Assembly (NCBI GenBank): GCA_043821365.1
Contig: JBDRCX010000002.1
Location: 1 to 64,000, forward strand
Length of the DNA: 64,000 nucleotides
Source of the DNA: Candidatus Micrarchaeota archaeon
Lineage (GTDB): Archaea; Micrarchaeota; Micrarchaeia; Anstonellales; Bilamarchaeaceae
Reading direction: 5' to 3'
The notes beneath the pieces are model-generated. The model was not told the DNA's origin and ran no database searches. It saw nothing but the letters and a program-made list of their open reading frames with translations. Shown here piece by piece: positions 8,608 to 18,535 of this stretch; the stretch's first letter is position 1, and each line of letters opens with the position of its first letter. Both the position numbers and the translations under genes were made by a program.

Positions 8608-9321
8608 ATGACTAAAAGCGATCGGGTTCCAACCTGTATTCCTGGTTTTGATGAGTTAATTGCAAACGGTCTAGAGAAAAATAGTATTACTGTGCTAAAA
8701 GGAGGAGCAGGGAGCGGTAAAACAATATTATCACTACAATACCTCCACGGCGGCTGTACAAAACATGATGAAGGTGGGGTGTTTATCAGCTTTTTAGAAT
8801 CAAAAGATTCTGTTTATACAACTGCTAAAAAATTTGGTTGGGATTTTGAAAAATTAGAAAAAGATAAATTATTCAGGTTCATAAAATATACCCCACACGA
8901 GATACAAAAAATAGTTAAAGATGGGGGCGGATCGCTTAGAGACACCATAGAAGCCCTTGAAGCAAAAAGGATTGTTGTTGATTCATTGACTGCATATGGT
9001 CTTGTTTTCAAAACAGACTATGAAACAAATGAAGGTGTGATGAACTTCATGAGCCTTTTGAAATCATGCAACTGTACTACTTTAGTTACTGAAGAATGCG
9101 AAGCAAATCCCAATGAAATAGAAAGTGGAAGATTAAGCTTTCTTAGTGATGGTCTTGTTAAACTTTATCATCTTCGGAAAGAGTATGGTAAATACCGTGC
9201 TCTTGAAGTAGTAAAAATGAGGCATACTGATCATTCAGATAGGATGCATATGTTCGACATTTCTGGTAAAGGAATTGTCATCAGAGAACAATCGGGTATT
9301 TTTGAACGCAAAAATGATTAG
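8608..9321 (+). CDS. Single-domain KaiC/RAD55-like ATPase
   Basis: DRVPTCIPGFDELI, GGAGSGKT, IVVDSL, SDGLVKL, EVVKMRHT. Confidence 0.9.
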   Translation: MTKSDRVPTCIPGFDELIANGLEKNSITVLKGGAGSGKTILSLQYLHGGCTKHDEGGVFISFLESKDSVYTTAKKFGWDFEKLEKDKLFRFIKYTPHEIQKIVKDGGGSLRDTIEALEAKRIVVDSLTAYGLVFKTDYETNEGVMNFMSLLKSCNCTTLVTEECEANPNEIESGRLSFLSDGLVKLYHLRKEYGKYRALEVVKMRHTDHSDRMHMFDISGKGIVIREQSGIFERKND

Positions 9322-9356
9322 AATGCTATTTAATATTTAACCTGTAATCTTTTTTG

Positions 9357-10100
9357 ATGGTTGTAAAGACTGGTGTTACTGGTTTGGATAAACTACTGGA
9401 TGGTGGTTTCCCAGATTATTCCACTGTTCTTGTATCTGGTGGGGCTGGAACTGGTAAAACAATTCTTGCACTTCAATTTTTGTTTGAAGGAATTCAGAAG
9501 AAAGAAAAAGGACTTTTTATAACATTTGAACAAAGCAAAGAAAAAATACTCGACCAGTGCTCTAGATTTGGTTGGGATTTTGAAAAATACGAAAAGCAAA
9601 AACTATTTCGAATTGTTGCCATGGATGATGTTGGAATTGCAAATATCCTCACCAAGATTAAATATAATCTAGATGATTTTAATCCAAAGCGCATGGTTAT
9701 AGATTCAATCACATTTATGTCATTATCTGCCTACTCTGCCAAAAGACTTATTGATCTTGATAAAACAAGTGTGGTGGAGCTTTATGAAGGTGGTAGGGAG
9801 AGCACATCTCCTGAATTTGATGGTCTTATAGTAAGAAAACTGCTAATTGATTTTGTAAAAATACTGCAACACAGGAAAATAAGTACGATTTTAACATCAG
9901 AAATACCAAAAGACAGCACTTGGTTGAGTAGAGATACATTTTCTGAATATGCTTCGGATGGTGTTCTTCTTCTAAAATCTGTTTCTATGGGAACACAGCT
10001 TCATAGGACAATCGAAGTCGTTAAAATGCGCAATACTAAGATTAAGGGTGGCATTTACGGATTTGATTTTCAAAAAAATGGGATCAAACTCAGCGTTTAA
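9357..10100 (+). CDS. Single-domain KaiC/RAD55-like ATPase with internal insertion
   Basis: KTGVTGLDKLLDGG, GGAGTGKT, FITFEQ, MVIDSI, SEYASDGV, EVVKMRNT. Confidence 0.9.
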   Translation: MVVKTGVTGLDKLLDGGFPDYSTVLVSGGAGTGKTILALQFLFEGIQKKEKGLFITFEQSKEKILDQCSRFGWDFEKYEKQKLFRIVAMDDVGIANILTKIKYNLDDFNPKRMVIDSITFMSLSAYSAKRLIDLDKTSVVELYEGGRESTSPEFDGLIVRKLLIDFVKILQHRKISTILTSEIPKDSTWLSRDTFSEYASDGVLLLKSVSMGTQLHRTIEVVKMRNTKIKGGIYGFDFQKNGIKLSV

Positions 10101-10175
10101 GTCTTTTTTATCTGGTGTAACTGTTATAAATATGTAATACTAATGTAGTTTCCAGTATCCGAAAAGTTGGTTCCC

Positions 10176-11279
10176 ATGCCAGTAGGAGATAGCGTAACAA
10201 GTTGGTTTATCCGTAACATAGTTCTGCCTAATGCAGAAGACATAACACATCCTGGTTATATCCTAAGCAAATTCAGTGAAGGTGGACAGACTATTTCTTT
10301 GCGTGAATTCTTTTTTCCTGAGAGTTTTTATGTTGAATTTGAAAAATCTATTGCAAAAAAGTTTGGTAAGAAAGGGGAAGCTAAACTTTATTCAGTTGGC
10401 AAAAGATTTGGTTACCGGTATGCGGTACTTTCCTATTTTAAGAAATATGGTGATCTTGGGAAGAAAAAGTTTCAGGAATTTTTGTACATGTTCGTTCGAT
10501 ATATAGAAGTTATATATGCGAAAAAATTACAACATAAAATGGACGCTGAAAAAAAATTACTTGAGCTTACTGCAGATTCCTATGTTTGCTGTGAAAAAAA
10601 TGGGTATGGTTACTTGCTTTTGATAGGTGCATGGCTTGGAATTTGGGCATTTCTAATGGATGATAAAAAAATAGAAGGAGTTCAGGTTGAATGTCAGGGC
10701 AGAGGAGACAAACGGTGTAAATTAGTCTGCAAACCAAATGGCACTTCTTTTACAGAAGAAAATATGGATGATCTTGAGGAAGATCAGGGTACATATGCAC
10801 TCCTAAATACTGTCCATCCATCTACAAATGATAACTATTCTCTTAAGGAACTTATTGAGAACCAAATATTCACTTACCAGAGTGGTAGACTATTCTTCGA
10901 TAAAGAAAGAATGGTTGGTATCGAAGCAAGTTTGTATTATATGGTGGACAATGCATTTTCGGATAAATCTTCTAATGACATATTATTTACAAGCGCTTTC
11001 AATAGTGGGAAAAAAATATCAGTAGGTAAAGATGTAATCTTTGTCCAGAGATTTCTAGCTTGCATTGGATTTGGCGATGTTCAAATCATTCCGAATGGGA
11101 AAAAATTCCAAGTTATTTTCAATCATTTTCCATGGACAAGATTTTCTGAAGAATGCAAATTTACCCTTTTGGCTGGGTTTACCTCAGGATTATTAAGCGG
11201 TTGCACAGGTAAGAAAATATCCTTCACAAAAATCTCAAAATCTGTTGAGGCAGATGGTTTCCATGTTCAAATGGCTTAA
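10176..11279 (+). CDS. Tandem V4R (4-vinyl reductase-like) ligand-binding domain protein
   Basis: LYSVGKRFGYRY...VECQGRGDKRCKLV in the first domain; second copy ERMVGIEAS...AFNSGKK...CIGFGDV...GFTSGLLSG. Confidence 0.75.
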   Translation: MPVGDSVTSWFIRNIVLPNAEDITHPGYILSKFSEGGQTISLREFFFPESFYVEFEKSIAKKFGKKGEAKLYSVGKRFGYRYAVLSYFKKYGDLGKKKFQEFLYMFVRYIEVIYAKKLQHKMDAEKKLLELTADSYVCCEKNGYGYLLLIGAWLGIWAFLMDDKKIEGVQVECQGRGDKRCKLVCKPNGTSFTEENMDDLEEDQGTYALLNTVHPSTNDNYSLKELIENQIFTYQSGRLFFDKERMVGIEASLYYMVDNAFSDKSSNDILFTSAFNSGKKISVGKDVIFVQRFLACIGFGDVQIIPNGKKFQVIFNHFPWTRFSEECKFTLLAGFTSGLLSGCTGKKISFTKISKSVEADGFHVQMA

Positions 11280-12144
11280 AACTCAGTTTTTCTTTATTCA
11301 TCATCTTTTCAAGTTAGAAGATCAACTTGCAAATTCTCTTAGTTTTGTTGTTGGTGTAATACTTGCATTTGGTGGAATACCGCCCCTTTCTCTTTCTCTT
11401 CTTTATGGCTTAGTTGCGGTTTGTTGCGCTCTTTTAGGTATAAATCTACTCAATCACATAACTGATGTTGAAATAGATAGGATAAACAAACCCCACCGTC
11501 CACTTCCCAGCCGGAAAATGAAAGAAGGTACAGCAATTTTGATTACTGCGTTTCTATTCACCCTTTCTTGTGTAACAGCAATTTTGGTTTCATTTCCCGT
11601 ATTTTTTCTTACATTCCTTTACATTTTTTTAGGAGTGTTGTATAGTGCTGAACCACTAAGGTTAAAAGAAAGATTTTTGGTTAATAATCTTGCGGTTGCA
11701 GTTTTCTATAATTTTATTAATTTCCTAATTGGCTGGTCGATTTTTCAACCAATTTTTGCTGCTCCATATCCCCTGCTCATTCTTTTGTTTACATATGATT
11801 TCATTGCAATAAATTCCAAAGACTATCATGATCTTGCAGGTGATAAGGAATTTGGGGTTAAGACAATTGTTTCATTGTTTGGGGTTGAAAATGCAATGAA
11901 AATCGATAAGGGTGCCCACTTTGCCATTCAAATTACTTTCATTCTTCTGGCTCTTCTTGGGTTCTTACCATCATACATCCTTGCATTCAGCATCATTACA
12001 TTAGTTTTTGTTTTTATGATTTTCCTAGACCTAAGCCACAATAAGAATTTTATGCGGTTCTATCACATGTCCTTTGGTCTCCACATATTTTTCAGAATTC
12101 TTATTCTGATTTTGTTCTTTACTCATATACTGGGACTAATGTAG
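11263..12144 (+). CDS. UbiA-family intramembrane prenyltransferase
   Basis: NHITDVEIDRINKPHRPLPS and KDYHDLAGDKEFGVKT Asp-rich motifs, YSAEPLRLK, about 8 TM. Confidence 0.9.
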   Translation: MFKWLKTQFFFIHHLFKLEDQLANSLSFVVGVILAFGGIPPLSLSLLYGLVAVCCALLGINLLNHITDVEIDRINKPHRPLPSRKMKEGTAILITAFLFTLSCVTAILVSFPVFFLTFLYIFLGVLYSAEPLRLKERFLVNNLAVAVFYNFINFLIGWSIFQPIFAAPYPLLILLFTYDFIAINSKDYHDLAGDKEFGVKTIVSLFGVENAMKIDKGAHFAIQITFILLALLGFLPSYILAFSIITLVFVFMIFLDLSHNKNFMRFYHMSFGLHIFFRILILILFFTHILGLM

Positions 12145-12177
12145 TTTGGAGATTATCTAAATTATAATAAGAAAAAT

Positions 12178-12384
12178 AGCCTCAGGAGAGAGTTGAACTC
12201 CCGACCTACTCCTTGTGCCTTTTAGGAAAAGGCACCCCAAAACAAGGGTGCTAATTTTGCGTCCTTCAGTCCGCAAAATAGATACAATACAAAATCCAAA
12301 AGGATTTTGCAATCAGATGGTTTTTGTTAAACTTTTTTCCAAAAAGTTTACGAGAGAGTCGCTCTACCACTGAGCTACTGAGGC
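12178..12384 (-). tRNA. tRNA-Thr(CGU) with 135-nt intron at 37/38 (intron 12214..12348)
   Basis: Exon1 GCCTCAG TA GCTCAGTGGTAGAGC G ACTCT CT CGT A; exon2 A GGAGT AGGTC GGGAG TTCAACT CTCTC CTGAGGC T; no clear BHB at the junctions. Confidence 0.85.
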
Positions 12385-12407
12385 TTACTTTGAAAAAATA
12401 GTTTGAT

Positions 12408-13682
12408 TTAGTTTATAAAAGCCTCGTACCGCACAACTTCACCCTTTTCAAAATAATATACACTATTCTTACCCTGCTGTTTTGAAGTTTGTACTGCCGT
12501 ATTTGCGTTGGCAAATATTGTTTCAACCATTTGTTCTACTTTTTGATGAGACAAACACCGTGTTCCTTTTGCACCTAAGATTTGTGAAATTTCCGTAGAC
12601 ACAATTTCATCCACACTTGCTACTCCCACACTGCATGTCACATTTCCATCTGTAAATTTTCCTCTTATTCTATCTGCTATTTCAAGAGCTTCTTTTTTGC
12701 TAACTCCTTTTATCACACCTGCAAATTCATCCCCACCCCATCTTGCTACCATGTCTTCAGGTCTTATTGATGCTTTTGCAGTTTCTGCTAATCTTCTCAA
12801 TTGTTCGTTTCCTTTTTGATAACTAAAATCATTCAGACGTTTAAGATTGTCAAGATCTATCAAAAACACCCAGACATTATTCATTTCACCTAGGATCACT
12901 CTTCTTATAGCTCCTATTAATTCTGCATTAAAATCAACAAATTTTGTGAGTGTAGTTATTGCATCAAATTTATGTGTAATGATAAATGCAATTTGTGAAG
13001 CAGCCTCTATTGCCACATGGGCACTCCAATAGGCAGCATCTAAACCAGTTAAATCTGAGTCTTTACAACGTAGATCCCCTTCAAATACTACCATCCCTGA
13101 TGGATAGCTTGGATCTCTGTAATAAAATGGCATGAAAGCTATTGACCCAGGTGTACTTCCCTTTCTTGCTCTTTCAGTATCGAAAATTGTACACCCACGA
13201 TTATTCATATCAAGGTCATCAAAAATAAGCATGATTCCACTTTGATCAACAAATGTTGGTTTTCTTGTGGCAAATGCATGGTCTCTCATTGTCCTAATTC
13301 TATGTTTTCCAATTATGCAATCTCTCTCATTTGATCCATAAACAACAAATTCATTTCTTTCTCGCATAACTGAAACTCTATGTTCAAGTTTACCTACTGA
13401 ACCTTTTGCTACTCTTGGAAGCAGATACACTCCACAGCATGTGGAATATTCAAAGATTCCCATCAGTCTTGCTATGTAATCTCCAAGTTTTGGGTAGTCC
13501 TCACTCATCATTCTACCTGTTTTGAACATTGCCATTGTAATGCCGTAATCTGGTATCACAGATGTGATTAATCGTCTACCAATCCTATCTGGTTCTAATA
13601 ATTTTTCTCCTAAATTAGGTCTACTATCGGATAGTTTTTGTATGCCTAAGGTATCAGCAACTGCAATTCTTCTGGGCGCCAT
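12408..13682 (-). CDS. GAF-GGDEF protein (diguanylate-cyclase-like dinucleotide cyclase)
   Basis: FLIDLDNLKRLND, IRPEDMVARWGGDEF, VTCSVGVA, SKQQGKN; upstream GAF-like SIAFMPF...GMVVFEG...AASQIAFII, then DAITTL. Confidence 0.88.
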   Translation of the reverse strand: MAPRRIAVADTLGIQKLSDSRPNLGEKLLEPDRIGRRLITSVIPDYGITMAMFKTGRMMSEDYPKLGDYIARLMGIFEYSTCCGVYLLPRVAKGSVGKLEHRVSVMRERNEFVVYGSNERDCIIGKHRIRTMRDHAFATRKPTFVDQSGIMLIFDDLDMNNRGCTIFDTERARKGSTPGSIAFMPFYYRDPSYPSGMVVFEGDLRCKDSDLTGLDAAYWSAHVAIEAASQIAFIITHKFDAITTLTKFVDFNAELIGAIRRVILGEMNNVWVFLIDLDNLKRLNDFSYQKGNEQLRRLAETAKASIRPEDMVARWGGDEFAGVIKGVSKKEALEIADRIRGKFTDGNVTCSVGVASVDEIVSTEISQILGAKGTRCLSHQKVEQMVETIFANANTAVQTSKQQGKNSVYYFEKGEVVRYEAFIN

Positions 13683-13886: not shown

Positions 13887-14010
13887 TGCGGTCGCCGAGA
13901 ATTTCACATCGCTTCGCTCGTGAAAAAAATCACCGAGCGTTCGGCGAAGATTTGAACTCGGGTTATGGGGTTGGAAACCCCAAGTCCTAACCAGGCTAGA
14001 CTACAACCGC
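13887..14010 (-). tRNA. tRNA-Gly(UCC) with 50-nt intron at T-loop position 59/60 (intron 13901..13950)
   Basis: GCGGTTG/CGACCGC acceptor; TGGGG-TT-TCC-AA-CCCCA; BHB with U54-A57 pairing to intron UGAA, flanked by 3-nt bulges. Confidence 0.92.
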
Positions 14011-14091: not shown

Positions 14092-14571
14092 CTATAGCTT
14101 CATCCTCATTTCAATATGAAAGTCTATAAATCCAAATTTTCTGTAAATTCTTGCTGCATTTGGATTTAATGCATGCGCAGCAATTGATAAATATTTGATT
14201 TTCTTTTTCTTGAACCACTTCATTGCCAATGTCATGAATTTTCTTCCAATTCCTTTACTTCTGTATTCAGGTTCAATATATAAATCAGAAAAGTGCCCAA
14301 GTTTTTTTATTTTAAATATTGGTATATTCTTCTTTATTATATTCAATGAATATCCAATTATTTTCTTCTTTTCTATTGCTATAAAAATAATCGCATTTTT
14401 CTTTTCAATCTCTCTTATTGCCCATTGTTTCCATTTTAATTCACTTTTTGGTAATAATTCGTAAAAATCTTTTTTGTTGTCTTTTGCCAAATTCCTGTGG
14501 TGCTCCATTAGTTTTTTCCAAAGTGGTATTATATCGCTTATTTCGCTTTTTTTTGCAATTCTTATCTTCAC
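14092..14571 (-). CDS. GNAT family N-acetyltransferase
   Basis: DLYIEPEYRSKGIGRKFM, NPNAARIYRKFGF. Confidence 0.9.
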   Translation of the reverse strand: MKIRIAKKSEISDIIPLWKKLMEHHRNLAKDNKKDFYELLPKSELKWKQWAIREIEKKNAIIFIAIEKKKIIGYSLNIIKKNIPIFKIKKLGHFSDLYIEPEYRSKGIGRKFMTLAMKWFKKKKIKYLSIAAHALNPNAARIYRKFGFIDFHIEMRMKL

Positions 14572-15240: not shown

Positions 15241-15357
15241 TTAAATTTTGGTTAGTTGACTCGCTTCGCTCGTGAGGAGTCGAGGGCCCCCTCAAATAAT
15301 AAAATACGTCGAGAGCTTGAAATAAGTTTCAAGTTCGTCGTTTTATAGAATAAAACG
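15241..15357. repeat. Array of short palindromes in the 3' trailer of tRNA-Ser
   Basis: gactc..gagtc (15258-15281), gaggg-cc-ccctc (15282-15293), gagcttgaaa-taag-tttcaagttc (15313-15336), cgttttat-aga-ataaaacg (15339-15357). Confidence 0.7.
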
Positions 15358-15470
15358 CCGAGGACAGGATTTGAACCTGTAATCCACAAGGGATCGGTTT
15401 TCTCAAATAATCCGGTTCGAGATTCGTCAGTTTACACTTCCGACGCACTACCGGGTTATGCGACCTCGGC
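15356..15470 (-). tRNA. tRNA-Ser(CGA) with two introns: 30/31 (17 nt, 15423..15439) and 37/38 (16 nt, 15400..15415)
   Basis: GCCGAGG/CCTCGGC-G73; long variable arm; spliced anticodon arm TCGGT-CT-CGA-AA-ACCGA; 4-bp central helices at both introns. Confidence 0.92.
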
Positions 15471-15501
15471 ATAATGATTAATTTAATTATAACTAGACCT
15501 T

Positions 15502-16074
15502 TTAATCAGACTCTTCAAACTCCTGAGCTTCATATACTAAAAATTCCATTCCGTTTGTGTCATGCCAGGCGGTTGCTGTAAGTCCTGCTTTCATGCACAA
15601 ATGACCTAAAAATTCTTCTTTTGTAGTTAATTGTTCCCATACAACTGGCAGGAAAGTTGCCCGTGCCCAGCCTTTTTTTATTATCAAACCATGTTTATTT
15701 GGTTTTAGTTTTTTGAGCAAATCCTTACTATCTTTTACTGGAAATGATTCTGGTTTTGTTAATACTGATATTGATATTTTTATTGTTTCCAATTCATCTA
15801 CCCTAAGAGATTGAAATCGTGAATCATTAAATGCTGAATTCAAAGTATTATCAATAATGTCAAAAATAAGTGGTCTATGGGCTTCCAAACTTCCAATACA
15901 TCCTCTCAAATTCCCATTTTTATATAATGTTACAAAACATGCACCTTCTTCTATAAGCTTTGGAAAAGGTACTTCTGATGGTTGAATTTGCAGTTGTTTG
16001 CCACTGCTAAAAAAATGAGCAAGTGTTTTTCGTGCTAATTCTAATAAAAAATTCTGCTCTTTTTTATTTAACAA
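15502..16074 (-). CDS. amrA: AMMECR1-domain protein (AmmeMemoRadiSam protein A)
   Basis: GACFVTL, LRGCIG, AFNDSRF, ISISVLT, HGLII, ATFLPVVW, FLGHLCMKAGL. Confidence 0.93.
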   Translation of the reverse strand: MLNKKEQNFLLELARKTLAHFFSSGKQLQIQPSEVPFPKLIEEGACFVTLYKNGNLRGCIGSLEAHRPLIFDIIDNTLNSAFNDSRFQSLRVDELETIKISISVLTKPESFPVKDSKDLLKKLKPNKHGLIIKKGWARATFLPVVWEQLTTKEEFLGHLCMKAGLTATAWHDTNGMEFLVYEAQEFEESD

Positions 16075-16078
16075 AAAA

Positions 16079-16345
16079 TCACCTTTTCTTTGTGTATATA
16101 CTTTTTATCCAAAATTCTTTGAAAATAGGGAAAGTTGCAGTTGATAGTACGAATCCAATGGCTGGTATTAAGGAATTTACCCAAGGGTCTGGTGCATTAA
16201 TTCCTATTAAGAGTATGAGTGCAAGTAGATAGATAGACGCGCCGATTACTAGTCTTCTTGTATTGCTTAGTTCCCATGCTTTGTCTGCTTCTACTCTAAC
16301 ATTTCTTTCTTTTATTTTTTTGATTTCTTTTTTAATCTCTGTCAT
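16079..16345 (-). CDS. Small two-TM membrane protein
   Basis: RNVRVEADKAWELSNTRR followed by two hydrophobic segments; inside the amr operon. Confidence 0.65.
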   Translation of the reverse strand: MTEIKKEIKKIKERNVRVEADKAWELSNTRRLVIGASIYLLALILLIGINAPDPWVNSLIPAIGFVLSTATFPIFKEFWIKSIYTKKR

Positions 16346-17131
16346 TTACTTCTCCTCGTAAAAAGCATAACATCCATAGCCAACCACCCTTGATTTTGGT
16401 CCTGCGGTGTCCCCAGAATTTCTGTAATCTAAGAGTTTACCTGTCCACTTTTTTTCCTTTGCAACATGCATGAGCACCAGTATTGGTATTTTTCCACAAG
16501 CATCTCCGACTGCCTCGAATTTTTCAATATCTAATCTTGGTACTGTTTCATTTGCCGTACTATCTGTTTTTACTGCGTCATCGTAAAATTTGTAATGGCT
16601 TAAGTCTGAACTTGCAATTATGATTGTTTCTTCATCTAATTCTTCCATTATTTCCTTTGCTAGTTTTGTTGGGTCTACCTGCCCACACAAAATCGGCCAG
16701 ATTTCAACATCACCAAGAACTGTTTGAATAAATGGCAACTGTACCTCCAGACAATGTTCTGGTTGGTGTGCTTCTGGATAAGTTACTATGGTTGGTTTTG
16801 TTTTTGTTATCGCTCTAATTTCACCCAATGGTGTTTGCCAAAACTCATAACCAGCTTCACATGCGCCCTGAAATCCAGCATAGTGAGATGGCCCTATCAA
16901 TATTACTTTCTTTATTTTTCCTTTATATTTTGAAAGAAGTTTGTACCCATAACCAGCCACTGATCCAGAATAAATATATCCTGCATGAGGCACAACAAGT
17001 CCGGTTAGTTTTCCGTTAATTTTTGTCTCTTTTGCATCTGAAAGGAATTTATCAATCATCTTCTTTATCTCATCTGGATTATCCGGGTAAAAAGCACCTG
17101 CAACTGCAGTTCTTCTTATTCCTAAACCCAT
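16346..17131 (-). CDS. amrB: MEMO1-family protein (AmmeMemoRadiSam protein B)
   Basis: AVAGAFYP, VPHAGYIYSG, GPSH, EHCLEVQLPF, SSDLSHY, CGKIP, SGD...VVGY. Confidence 0.95.
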   Translation of the reverse strand: MGLGIRRTAVAGAFYPDNPDEIKKMIDKFLSDAKETKINGKLTGLVVPHAGYIYSGSVAGYGYKLLSKYKGKIKKVILIGPSHYAGFQGACEAGYEFWQTPLGEIRAITKTKPTIVTYPEAHQPEHCLEVQLPFIQTVLGDVEIWPILCGQVDPTKLAKEIMEELDEETIIIASSDLSHYKFYDDAVKTDSTANETVPRLDIEKFEAVGDACGKIPILVLMHVAKEKKWTGKLLDYRNSGDTAGPKSRVVGYGCYAFYEEK

Positions 17132-17138
17132 GATCTCA

Positions 17139-17480
17139 CTATTCTAAAATCTTGAATGATTTTACATCCATCACAGTTCTTGGTCCTTCCCAACCCTGGG
17201 AAATTGGTTGCCCTGGTTGATATGGACCAACAGTATGGCTAGTGTCTGTTTCAACAACCCCAATTACCTCCAATCGTTTCCCTTCATAGGAACTGTTTTG
17301 TGGGAAATTTAACAAGTATACAACTGAATCGTTTGTTTGCAAGACTGGCCCTCCTTTATACTGTTCACTATAGACCCCAATCATGGTGGTCAGGTTACCC
17401 TTCACATTCATATTATCTCCCTCATTATGAATACATCCTGCGAATATTAAAAATAAACTGAAAATCATCATCCTAATCAT
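17139..17480 (-). CDS. Small lipoprotein-like protein
   Basis: Hydrophobic N-terminus with FAGC; ATG overlaps the amrS stop. Confidence 0.6.
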   Translation of the reverse strand: MIRMMIFSLFLIFAGCIHNEGDNMNVKGNLTTMIGVYSEQYKGGPVLQTNDSVVYLLNFPQNSSYEGKRLEVIGVVETDTSHTVGPYQPGQPISQGWEGPRTVMDVKSFKILE

Positions 17481-18535
17481 TTCCAAATCCCTGCCACATT
17501 TTCTTTACAAAATCTACATTTGCCATCAATAATATTGTTATTTCTGACTGTGAAACCGATTCTTGTTATCAGATCTTTTCTGCATCTTTTACATAATGTT
17601 GATTCATAACTAGCATATGCAATTCCAACATTGCCACAATAAACATGATGCAACCCAGTTAGTCTTCCTATCTCTCTAGCTCTAACTAGACTTGCTGGTG
17701 GAGTTGGTTTTTTGTCAACCAGTTTGTAATCTGGATGAAATGCAGTTATGTGCCATGGCATTTCAGGATCAATATCAACTAAAAACTTGACCATTTCTTT
17801 AAGTTCGTTTTCATTGTCGTTAAGATTAGGAATCAGCAAAGTGGTAATTTCCACCCAGATTCCAAGTTTTTTTGCATATTTTATTGATTCTTTTATTGGT
17901 TCAAGATCAGGAACTTTGCATAGTTTCTGGTAGAAATTTTTATTATAAGCTTTAAGATCAATATTTACTGCATCTATGTATTTCTTGATTGCATTCCAAC
18001 ATTCTTTTGATTCATAACCATTTGTAACGTAAATTCCTTTCAATCCCTTTTTTCTAGCTAGTTTCATTATGTCAATTGCATACTCAGTGAAAATCGTTGG
18101 TTCATTGTAGGTAAATGAGATTGATTTTGATCCACTTTGAACTGCAGCATCAACAACTCTCTCTGGTGACCAATCTTCACATCTGTTGAGCATGTTTTGA
18201 AAATACACTTTCCAGTTTTTTGGATCATGTACTCGTGCTTCCTGCGGAGCCTGACTCATACCGAAATTTTGACAAAAGTCACACGCAAAATTACAACCAA
18301 ATGTTCCAATAGAGAAGCTTTTAGTTCCAGGTAGAAAATGAAATAAAGGTTTTTTCTCTATTGGGTCAGCCCAAACTGCACATGGCTTTCCATAGACAGA
18401 TAACTTCAATTTTCCTTTTTCATTTGTTCTAACACCACAAAAACCAGCAGCATTAGGTGCAATATTACAATATCTAGAACAAGCAAGACATTTTATTGTT
18501 TTTCCTGTTTTTTTTGCCAGCATCTTTGCCGTCAT
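17477..18535 (-). CDS. amrS: AmmeMemoRadiSam radical SAM enzyme
   Basis: CLACSRYC, GFCGVR, DPIEKKPLFHF, GCNFACDFCQN (CxxxCxxC), TYNEP, AFHPDYK, YCGNV. Confidence 0.95.
   Translation of the reverse strand: MTAKMLAKKTGKTIKCLACSRYCNIAPNAAGFCGVRTNEKGKLKLSVYGKPCAVWADPIEKKPLFHFLPGTKSFSIGTFGCNFACDFCQNFGMSQAPQEARVHDPKNWKVYFQNMLNRCEDWSPERVVDAAVQSGSKSISFTYNEPTIFTEYAIDIMKLARKKGLKGIYVTNGYESKECWNAIKKYIDAVNIDLKAYNKNFYQKLCKVPDLEPIKESIKYAKKLGIWVEITTLLIPNLNDNENELKEMVKFLVDIDPEMPWHITAFHPDYKLVDKKPTPPASLVRAREIGRLTGLHHVYCGNVGIAYASYESTLCKRCRKDLITRIGFTVRNNNIIDGKCRFCKENVAGIWK

Follow-up and report, generated by a model that had tools for sequence, protein, structure and literature searches.

Does a GGDEF cyclase still make cyclic di-GMP (c-di-GMP) when the residue that reads its guanine base is Asn instead of Asp? 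The question is raised by a gene of a Candidatus Micrarchaeota archaeon, which encodes a GAF-GGDEF protein here called P0001. The gene lies in a stretch of 64,000 nucleotides (the window; assembly GCA_043821365.1, contig JBDRCX010000002.1, positions 1 to 64,000), and the original prediction, made from the letters alone, proposed a sensor-linked archaeal cyclase with a possibly changed nucleotide product. We found that, as judged from the alignment of its relatives, Asn at this position is a family trait that alternates with Asp, and no quirk of a single sequence. We put at roughly 55% the probability that P0001 is an active, dimeric, GAF-gated cyclase whose main product would still be c-di-GMP. 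With Asn292, it possibly has a lower affinity for GTP or a relaxed purine selectivity.

The catalytic domain and its base-reading residue

Two profiles matched the catalytic domain of P0001 above their cut-offs. These were Pfam PF00990 at residues 239-406 (E 2e-19, 70.4 bits, cut-off 23.8) and TIGR00254 of NCBIfam (E 9.8e-20, 70.9 bits, cut-off 37.4). In the Foldseek comparison, the domain resembled the GGDEF domains of PleD, WspR, DgcZ and DosC, with template modelling (TM) scores by target of up to 0.83. The closest protein to P0001 was P0002 of Candidatus Bilamarchaeum dharawalense (58% identity), and the two share their start.

We aligned P0001 with PleD (1w25) using HMMER, and found that D276, K281 and N284 correspond to D327, K332 and N335 of PleD, and that N292 corresponds to D344. 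In the same alignment, R307-P-E-D310 falls on the I-site residues R359-D362, and G316-G-D-E-F320 falls on GGEEF. There was a single gap, located directly after 'ND'. In addition, K401 and K405 are the equivalents of PleD K442 and R446. The motifs listed in the original prediction (GGDEF, IDLD, LKRLND, RPED and GN) were all present and correctly placed, as I-D276-L-D278, L-K281-R-L-N284-D and FSYQK-G291-N292, and the I-site is followed by the five residues MVARW and then by GGDEF. This also bore out the claim of Asn at the guanine-specificity position in a segment shortened by one residue.

Thus P0001 shares much with the canonical cyclases PleD (Caulobacter) and WspR (Pseudomonas): the GGDEF fold, the metal-binding Asp, the equivalents of K332, N335 and K442/R446, the GG[DE]EF motif, and an RxxD five residues before it. 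It differs from PleD in its Asn for Asp344, in the one-residue deletion (also present in its sister protein), and in having a GAF-like input instead of REC. Its host, an archaeon without EAL, HD-GYP and PilZ, is unlike the hosts of PleD and WspR. P0001 thus lacks the Asp at PleD D344 that marks canonical (class I) enzymes, and carries the RxxD I-site.

Searching 1.84 billion representative proteins with a profile, we found about 40 full-length members of the family, and these were combined with genome-derived copies into 45 sequences for the alignment and the tree. Overall identity was 35-60%. Nevertheless, D276, K281, N284, R314, GG[DE]EF, K401 and K/R405 were invariant or nearly so. In the GGDEF motif, the first G and the F were found in 42/45 members, and the second G, the D/E and the E in 45/45; in the I-site, the R was found in 42/45 and the D in 45/45. 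Catalytic residues kept at this level of identity are not expected of a dead domain.

At the position of PleD D344, 24 members have N and 21 have D, and nothing else was observed. The maximum-likelihood tree separates a mostly-D half (18 D, 3 N) from a mostly-N half (21 N, 3 D) with 99% support, and places P0001 in the mostly-N half beside P0002. The tree requires a minimum of six N/D switches, and well-supported branches force at least four of them. Changes occur even between sisters, as in P0007 (N) and P0012 (D), with a support of 95, and in P0008 (N) and P0126 (D). Among the genome-derived copies examined, Asn is encoded by AAT in 8 and by AAC in 4. Asn was thus kept through synonymous codon change, suggesting that the residue is under selection. 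We found no column co-varying with N/D beyond phylogeny among the GGDEF-domain alignment columns (residues 238-411, 45 sequences). The Asn-type members are evenly divided between GGDEF (12) and GGEEF (12).

An assembly error at the Asn codon was ruled out, as three public runs belonging to two studies (one biofilm, one groundwater) gave contigs in which the letters of the gene are identical.

The canonical Asp is present in all 21 of the other GGDEF proteins that we retrieved from Micrarchaeota. Outside the family, Asn was found in 22 of 352 GGDEF domains, a set that was retrieved with the P0001 query and is hence biased. Since some of these Asn domains have intact motifs, the Asn type also occurs outside the family.

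Several non-family metagenomic proteins (P0120, P0081, P0036, P0049, P0037, P0020, P0119 and P0106) combine Gly-Asn with intact NDxxGH and GGDEF motifs. Among the listed proteins of this kind, 9/9 have GGDEF and none has GGEEF, and some carry REC or MerR-GAF inputs. The Micrarchaeia metagenome-assembled genome (MAG) of isolate STL-MIC1 (L058, L060; also G157) contains two Asn-type GAF-GGDEF paralogues. One copy is located in the TIM/tRNA-Gly position and the other elsewhere. A third GGDEF protein of this genome has the canonical Asp and a different N-terminus.

The N-terminal domain and the predicted dimer

The label 'GAF' in the original prediction held by fold and not by sequence. No Pfam family matched residues 1-238 of P0001, and the GAF models PF01590, PF13185 and PF13492 were unlisted at E values up to 1. 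The structure searches, on the other hand, pointed to the GAF fold, which is a six-stranded antiparallel sheet flanked by helices. The AlphaFold model of the whole protein has a predicted local distance difference test (pLDDT) score of 81.6, and the AlphaFold2 (AF2) model of residues 40-237 alone reached 87.5. With the latter model, VIA returned the GAF domains of Nlh2 (Z 10.8), NifA (Z 10.7) and PtsP (Z 10.5), with about 140 aligned residues spanning model residues 4-198. The Foldseek list for this model consisted almost throughout of GAF domains, and the Atlas structure neighbours of the N-terminal domain were GAF proteins. Taken together, the models indicate that P0001 is a GAF-GGDEF protein at the level of the fold, and that its GAF domain has diverged beyond the reach of sequence profiles. 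The family has motifs of its own in this domain, LEHR (99-102) and MPFYYRDPxxPSGxVVFEGDLRC (184-206).

The best sequence match of P0001 in the PDB was Dcsbis (PA2771) of Pseudomonas aeruginosa (4zmu/4zmm, E 1.3e-10), and 4zmu was also the best full-length structural match. Dcsbis and P0001 have the GAF-linker-GGDEF layout and the RPED I-site in common. Unlike P0001, Dcsbis has the canonical GD, and the two GAF domains are alike by fold alone (9% identity, Z 7.3).

We also predicted the homodimer of P0001, and obtained an ipSAE of 0.73 (median of three runs) in a model-only result, compared with 0.00 for the best control. In the calibration, the mark was reached by 20/30 proteins solved as pairs and by 1/23 solved as single chains. 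The runs agreed in at least 16% of contacts, with a partner pLDDT of at least 73. The predicted interface consists of helix 41-64, residues 186-190 and the linker helix at 219-237. This pass may reflect likeness to GAF dimers that are already solved.

The likely product of P0001

The data show the domain make-up of P0001, its intact motifs, its archaeal origin, its conservation and the N/D pattern; from these, we infer its activity, dimer, product, GAF ligand and downstream partners as follows. The protein would be a cytoplasmic homodimer (no membrane or signal segment was predicted in P0001) whose N-terminal GAF-fold domain binds a small ligand. The linker helix 213-237 would transmit the state of the GAF domain and set the register of the two GGDEF domains. 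Each GGDEF domain would take one purine nucleoside triphosphate (NTP) and Mg2+ through D276, K281, N284, N292, D318/E319, K401 and K405, and the pair would condense the NTPs to a 3',3'-cyclic dinucleotide. The RxxD site R307-D310 would bind this product and limit the output. Asn292 would stand in the place of the carboxylate that reads the Watson-Crick edge of guanine; it has the same length as Asp and could hydrogen-bond guanine. Breakdown and reception would go through proteins outside EAL, HD-GYP, PilZ and MshEN.

The intact catalytic residues, the restriction of position 292 to D or N, the kept I-site and the sensor predicted to form a dimer point to an active, ligand-gated and product-inhibited cyclase. 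As for the product, the length of Asn, its capacity to bond guanine and the free N/D alternation suggest that c-di-GMP is still made. Three further observations favour c-di-GMP: D and N interchange among close relatives without a compensating change, the second guanine contact N284 is unchanged, and the archaeal GGDEF proteins tested so far act as diguanylate cyclases (PMC13725321). Judged from the alignment, a tolerated, near-isosteric substitution would account for the N/D pattern no less well than a new class of product.

The archaeal proteins just mentioned were described by Sidorov et al. 2026 and comprise Methanocella arvoryzae MRE50 and 20 MAG proteins, mainly from DPANN (PMC13725321). 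In Salmonella and E. coli, several of them, including some from DPANN, produced the read-outs of diguanylate cyclases (PMC13725321). Like P0001, the members of this set are located on verified archaeal contigs, and some have GAF inputs. The main text of that paper contains neither Micrarchaeota, nor an Asn variant, nor the six accessions of the P0001 family. The view of c-di-GMP signalling as an essentially bacterial trait, on which the original prediction drew, is out of date (PMC13725321).

Several points weigh against the reading of P0001 as a c-di-GMP-making cyclase. The one-residue deletion before N292 is confined to P0001 and its sister P0002, which sit on a common long branch (0.85), and the active-site geometry of these two proteins may differ from that of the rest of the family. 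In the literature searched, we found nothing on Asn-type GGDEF enzymes, and no report of activity for any of them. By analogy, GTPases in which the Asp of the NKxD motif is changed to Asn bind GTP more weakly and come to prefer xanthine nucleotides. A review calls D344 essential for activity (PMC7288161). Finally, the families of phosphodiesterases and receptors that would serve a c-di-GMP system were not found in the source genome. This genome is 1.20 Mb long and 87% complete, and contains one Pfam-detectable GGDEF gene. The partner families named with the original prediction (EAL, HD-GYP, PilZ and MshEN) were sought in it and gave no match, and neither did DAC. A complete c-di-GMP module, meaning a phosphodiesterase and a receptor in the same genome, was therefore not found. 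The genome encodes four DHHA1 proteins, one of them of the 309-aa DHH-DHHA1 type. From its domains, the latter is the only obvious candidate in the genome for a nanoRNase or cyclic-dinucleotide phosphodiesterase, and could be the enzyme of breakdown in the proposed mechanism.

The same imbalance was seen across a sample of the phylum. GGDEF was found in 141/401 genomes (a tally that includes one unpublished genome, G029, on which no other result depends) and in 69/188 high-quality genomes, with many short proteins of 200-300 aa. EAL was found in 2/401 genomes and PilZ in 1/401, and neither occurs in the family of the source genome. HD_5 (HD-GYP-type) exceeded its cut-off in 40/401 genomes. DAC was found in 26/381 genomes of the phylum and in 0/73 of the source genome's family. 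Three genomes of the same genus with a D-type copy (G118, G244 and G377) have HD_5 over the cut-off, one strongly and two marginally, and HD_5 is over the cut-off in 0/11 genomes with an N-type copy. Given the few, related genomes and the two marginal scores, this is a hint of an association between the D type and HD-GYP.

The strongest alternative is that Asn292 alters the choice of substrate, and that the main product in the cell is 3',3'-cGAMP (cyclic GMP-AMP), c-di-AMP or another purine dinucleotide. We regard this as a possibility to be taken seriously, although distinctly less probable than c-di-GMP. The position is an established selectivity residue: in Hypr enzymes, Ser/Thr at this position leads to 3',3'-cGAMP, and the change from S to D restores c-di-GMP (PMC6456294, PMC9140294). 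On chemical reasoning, a carboxamide could pair with adenine (N1/N6) or with guanine. N is also held across the mostly-N half of the tree despite synonymous codon turnover, and the genome and its family have none of DAC, EAL and PilZ. The distribution of HD-GYP among the few, related genomes (0/11 N-type against 3/3 D-type of the same genus) points in the same direction. However, the repeated N/D switches between close relatives, with no co-varying residue, would be unexpected if receptors had to change with the product. Nor is there a change in the RxxD I-site or in Asn284, which contacts guanine. The cGAMP riboswitch RF01051 (GEMM-I) had no match in the genome, which carries little weight, as none of the control genomes gave a match in this search either.

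The comparison with Hypr enzymes also speaks against an altered product. GacA/GSU1658 (Geobacter) and Bd0367 (Bdellovibrio) resemble P0001 in having a variant at the same position and a kept I-site. According to the 'Goldilocks' model of Hypr enzymes, the shorter Ser/Thr works only with GGDEF and never with GGEEF (PMC6456294). The P0001 family differs from this in both respects. Its variant residue, Asn, is an isostere of Asp, and its Asn-type members show no GGDEF-only rule, although P0001 itself has GGDEF. Since Asn is as long as Asp, the 12:12 division between GGDEF and GGEEF is as expected. On these sequence features, we class the P0001 family as not Hypr, and as not Hypr-like in its predicted behaviour.

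A bolder form of the altered product is that Asn-type GGDEF proteins are a second natural specificity class after Hypr. Such a class would make another dinucleotide or a mixture tuned by ATP:GTP, in a private archaeal messenger system. We consider this somewhat more doubtful still.

Less probable again is that the GGDEF domain makes no dinucleotide, and acts through protein contacts as a sensor or scaffold that binds NTPs or dinucleotides, like GdpS. The reported need for D344 would fit this explanation (PMC7288161), as would the existence of intact-motif GGDEF proteins without demonstrated activity, known as class III (PMC13725321), and the undetectable turnover or receptor partners in the genome. 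We think it unlikely, in view of the retention of all metal-, phosphate- and base-contacting residues except 292 over 45 sequences of low identity. D-type and N-type members share all these contacting residues, and the I-site is kept. The preferred reading of P0001 thus remains an active cyclase that would make mainly c-di-GMP.

The archaeal host, its gene order and the meaning of the family

The features of the locus are collected in Table 1.

Table 1. Features of the P0001 gene and its surroundings; positions are those of the window unless a contig is given
Feature	Position	Strand	Basis or remark
GAF-GGDEF gene P0001	12408..13682	(-)	uninterrupted open reading frame (ORF), 424 aa
N-terminal residues 1-39, poorly conserved	13566..13682	(-)	pLDDT <50 at 11-33; weak alignment
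GAF-fold sensor domain, residues 40-212	13047..13565	(-)	AF2 model, structure searches
Long linker helix, residues 213-237, GAF to GGDEF	12972..13046	(-)	AF2 model; part of predicted interface
GGDEF catalytic domain, residues 238-410	12453..12971	(-)	Pfam PF00990 at 239-406
Codon AAC, Asn292, base-reading position (PleD Asp344)	12807..12809	(-)	PleD alignment, sequence
RxxD I-site, R307-P-E-D310	12753..12764	(-)	aligned to PleD R359-D362
GGDEF active-site motif, residues 316-320	12723..12737	(-)	sequence, family alignment
tRNA-Thr(CGU), 135-nt anticodon-loop intron, immediately downstream of gene	12177..12385	(-)	ARAGORN with introns
tRNA-Gly(UCC), without intron, directly upstream of gene	13935..14010	(-)	ARAGORN; Rfam 38.4 bits
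GNAT acetyltransferase gene, between tRNA-Gly and TIM	14092..14571	(-)	
tRNA-Phe(GAA), 35-nt intron	15355..15471	(-)	ARAGORN with introns; Rfam 39.9 bits
AmmeMemoRadiSam cluster: AMMECR1, 88-aa ORF, Memo, 115-aa ORF, radical-SAM	15502..18535	(-)	
KaiC, KaiC (tandem), 370-aa weak-V4R protein, UbiA prenyltransferase	8608..12144	(+)	
309-aa DHH-DHHA1 ORF, L033	G000 contig 6, 511094-511312		DHHA1 46.2 bits

The gene is native to Micrarchaeota (DPANN) and vertically inherited in this lineage. Besides P0002, the other named full-length relatives are annotated as Micrarchaeota or Micrarchaeia, as found by sequence search and genome scan; this statement covers the named relatives, and the metagenomic members P0124-P0174 lie outside it. 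A scan for the GAF-motif pattern in one genome per prokaryotic species returned eight loci, all on contigs named as Micrarchaeota. We found a recurring gene order, radical-SAM, Memo, small ORF, AMMECR1, TIM, tRNA-Gly(UCC), GAF-GGDEF and intron-bearing tRNA, shared by many of these genomes and by over 10 genomes of the same genus. In most relatives, the same tRNA-Gly is located upstream of the homologue; at the site of tRNA-Thr, relatives have an intron-bearing tRNA. The relatives, the conserved TIM/tRNA-Gly synteny and the tRNAs with bulge-helix-bulge (BHB)-type introns that flank the gene support the prediction of an archaeal protein.

It is very improbable that mis-binning or mis-assembly put bacterial DNA into an archaeal contig here, even though GGDEF is overwhelmingly bacterial and an earlier census doubted archaeal cases (PMC5847659), because GC content is flat across the region (about 0.35-0.36), the flanks are archaeal (intron-bearing tRNAs, an archaeal-size TIM, the AmmeMemoRadiSam cluster), the arrangement recurs in eight named MAGs of Micrarchaeota and in over 10 same-genus genomes, and single contigs of independent runs span the gene and both tRNA neighbours. 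Contamination and chimerism were set aside on these grounds.

The original prediction placed the gene between two intron-bearing tRNAs. The introns of tRNA-Thr and tRNA-Phe were found, but the adjoining upstream tRNA is the tRNA-Gly, which is intron-less according to both ARAGORN and Rfam. For tRNA-Phe, Rfam gave a 42-nt insertion in the anticodon arm where ARAGORN gave a 35-nt intron. The intron of tRNA-Thr(CGU) is unusually long, with several potential hairpin inverted repeats visible by eye, and the gene was missed by default ARAGORN and by Rfam. In groundwater-run contigs, similar exons are connected across other, shorter inserts; these are presumably tRNA genes of related organisms. None of the related loci examined contains an equivalent of the GNAT acetyltransferase gene at this site, and from this comparison the gene looks like a lineage-specific insertion into the conserved order. 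The AmmeMemoRadiSam cluster has the same gene order in Ca. Bilamarchaeum, and also in at least one Micrarchaeota MAG that is more distant.

On the other side of tRNA-Thr, the block of two KaiC genes, the V4R-like gene and UbiA lies on the opposite strand and is convergent with the cyclase gene. The cyclase gene and UbiA are thus not co-transcribed. The 370-aa protein scored 19.1 bits with V4R against a cut-off of 31, and its gene shares 35 bases with UbiA. Only in Bilamarchaeum, the closest relative, is the block collinear; elsewhere, distant KaiC paralogues (about 30% identity) are found 4-5 kb off. For these reasons, the proposed 'signalling island' of KaiC, V4R, UbiA and the cyclase did not hold up. 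A KaiC-V4R-UbiA-GGDEF unit was rejected, as the genes that keep their place beside the cyclase gene elsewhere have housekeeping roles (AmmeMemoRadiSam, TIM and tRNA-Gly).

The archaeal setting as such is no longer a novelty, since GGDEF cyclases of archaea, DPANN and GAF-linked examples among them, appeared in print in September 2026. Only then, through heterologous assays, was it answered whether c-di-GMP is used in archaea at all (PMC13725321). That study left open the prevalence of the enzymes, their partners and the role of variant motifs (PMC13725321). Compared with the literature searched, what is new is the Micrarchaeota GAF-GGDEF family and its natural Asp/Asn polymorphism at the selectivity residue. 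The Micrarchaeota genomics papers that we checked mention neither GGDEF nor c-di-GMP.

The locus thus represents a clean, vertically inherited archaeal family with a single natural Asp/Asn polymorphism on a known selectivity residue. Its close pairs of D-type and N-type members allow direct comparison, to tell a silent replacement by Asn from a new route to a changed product. The occurrence of GGDEF in about a third of the sampled Micrarchaeota, with EAL and PilZ almost absent, points to novel archaeal proteins for turnover and reception. If the Asn type were indeed a specificity class of its own, a lineage without DAC, EAL and PilZ would run its own archaeal second-messenger system.

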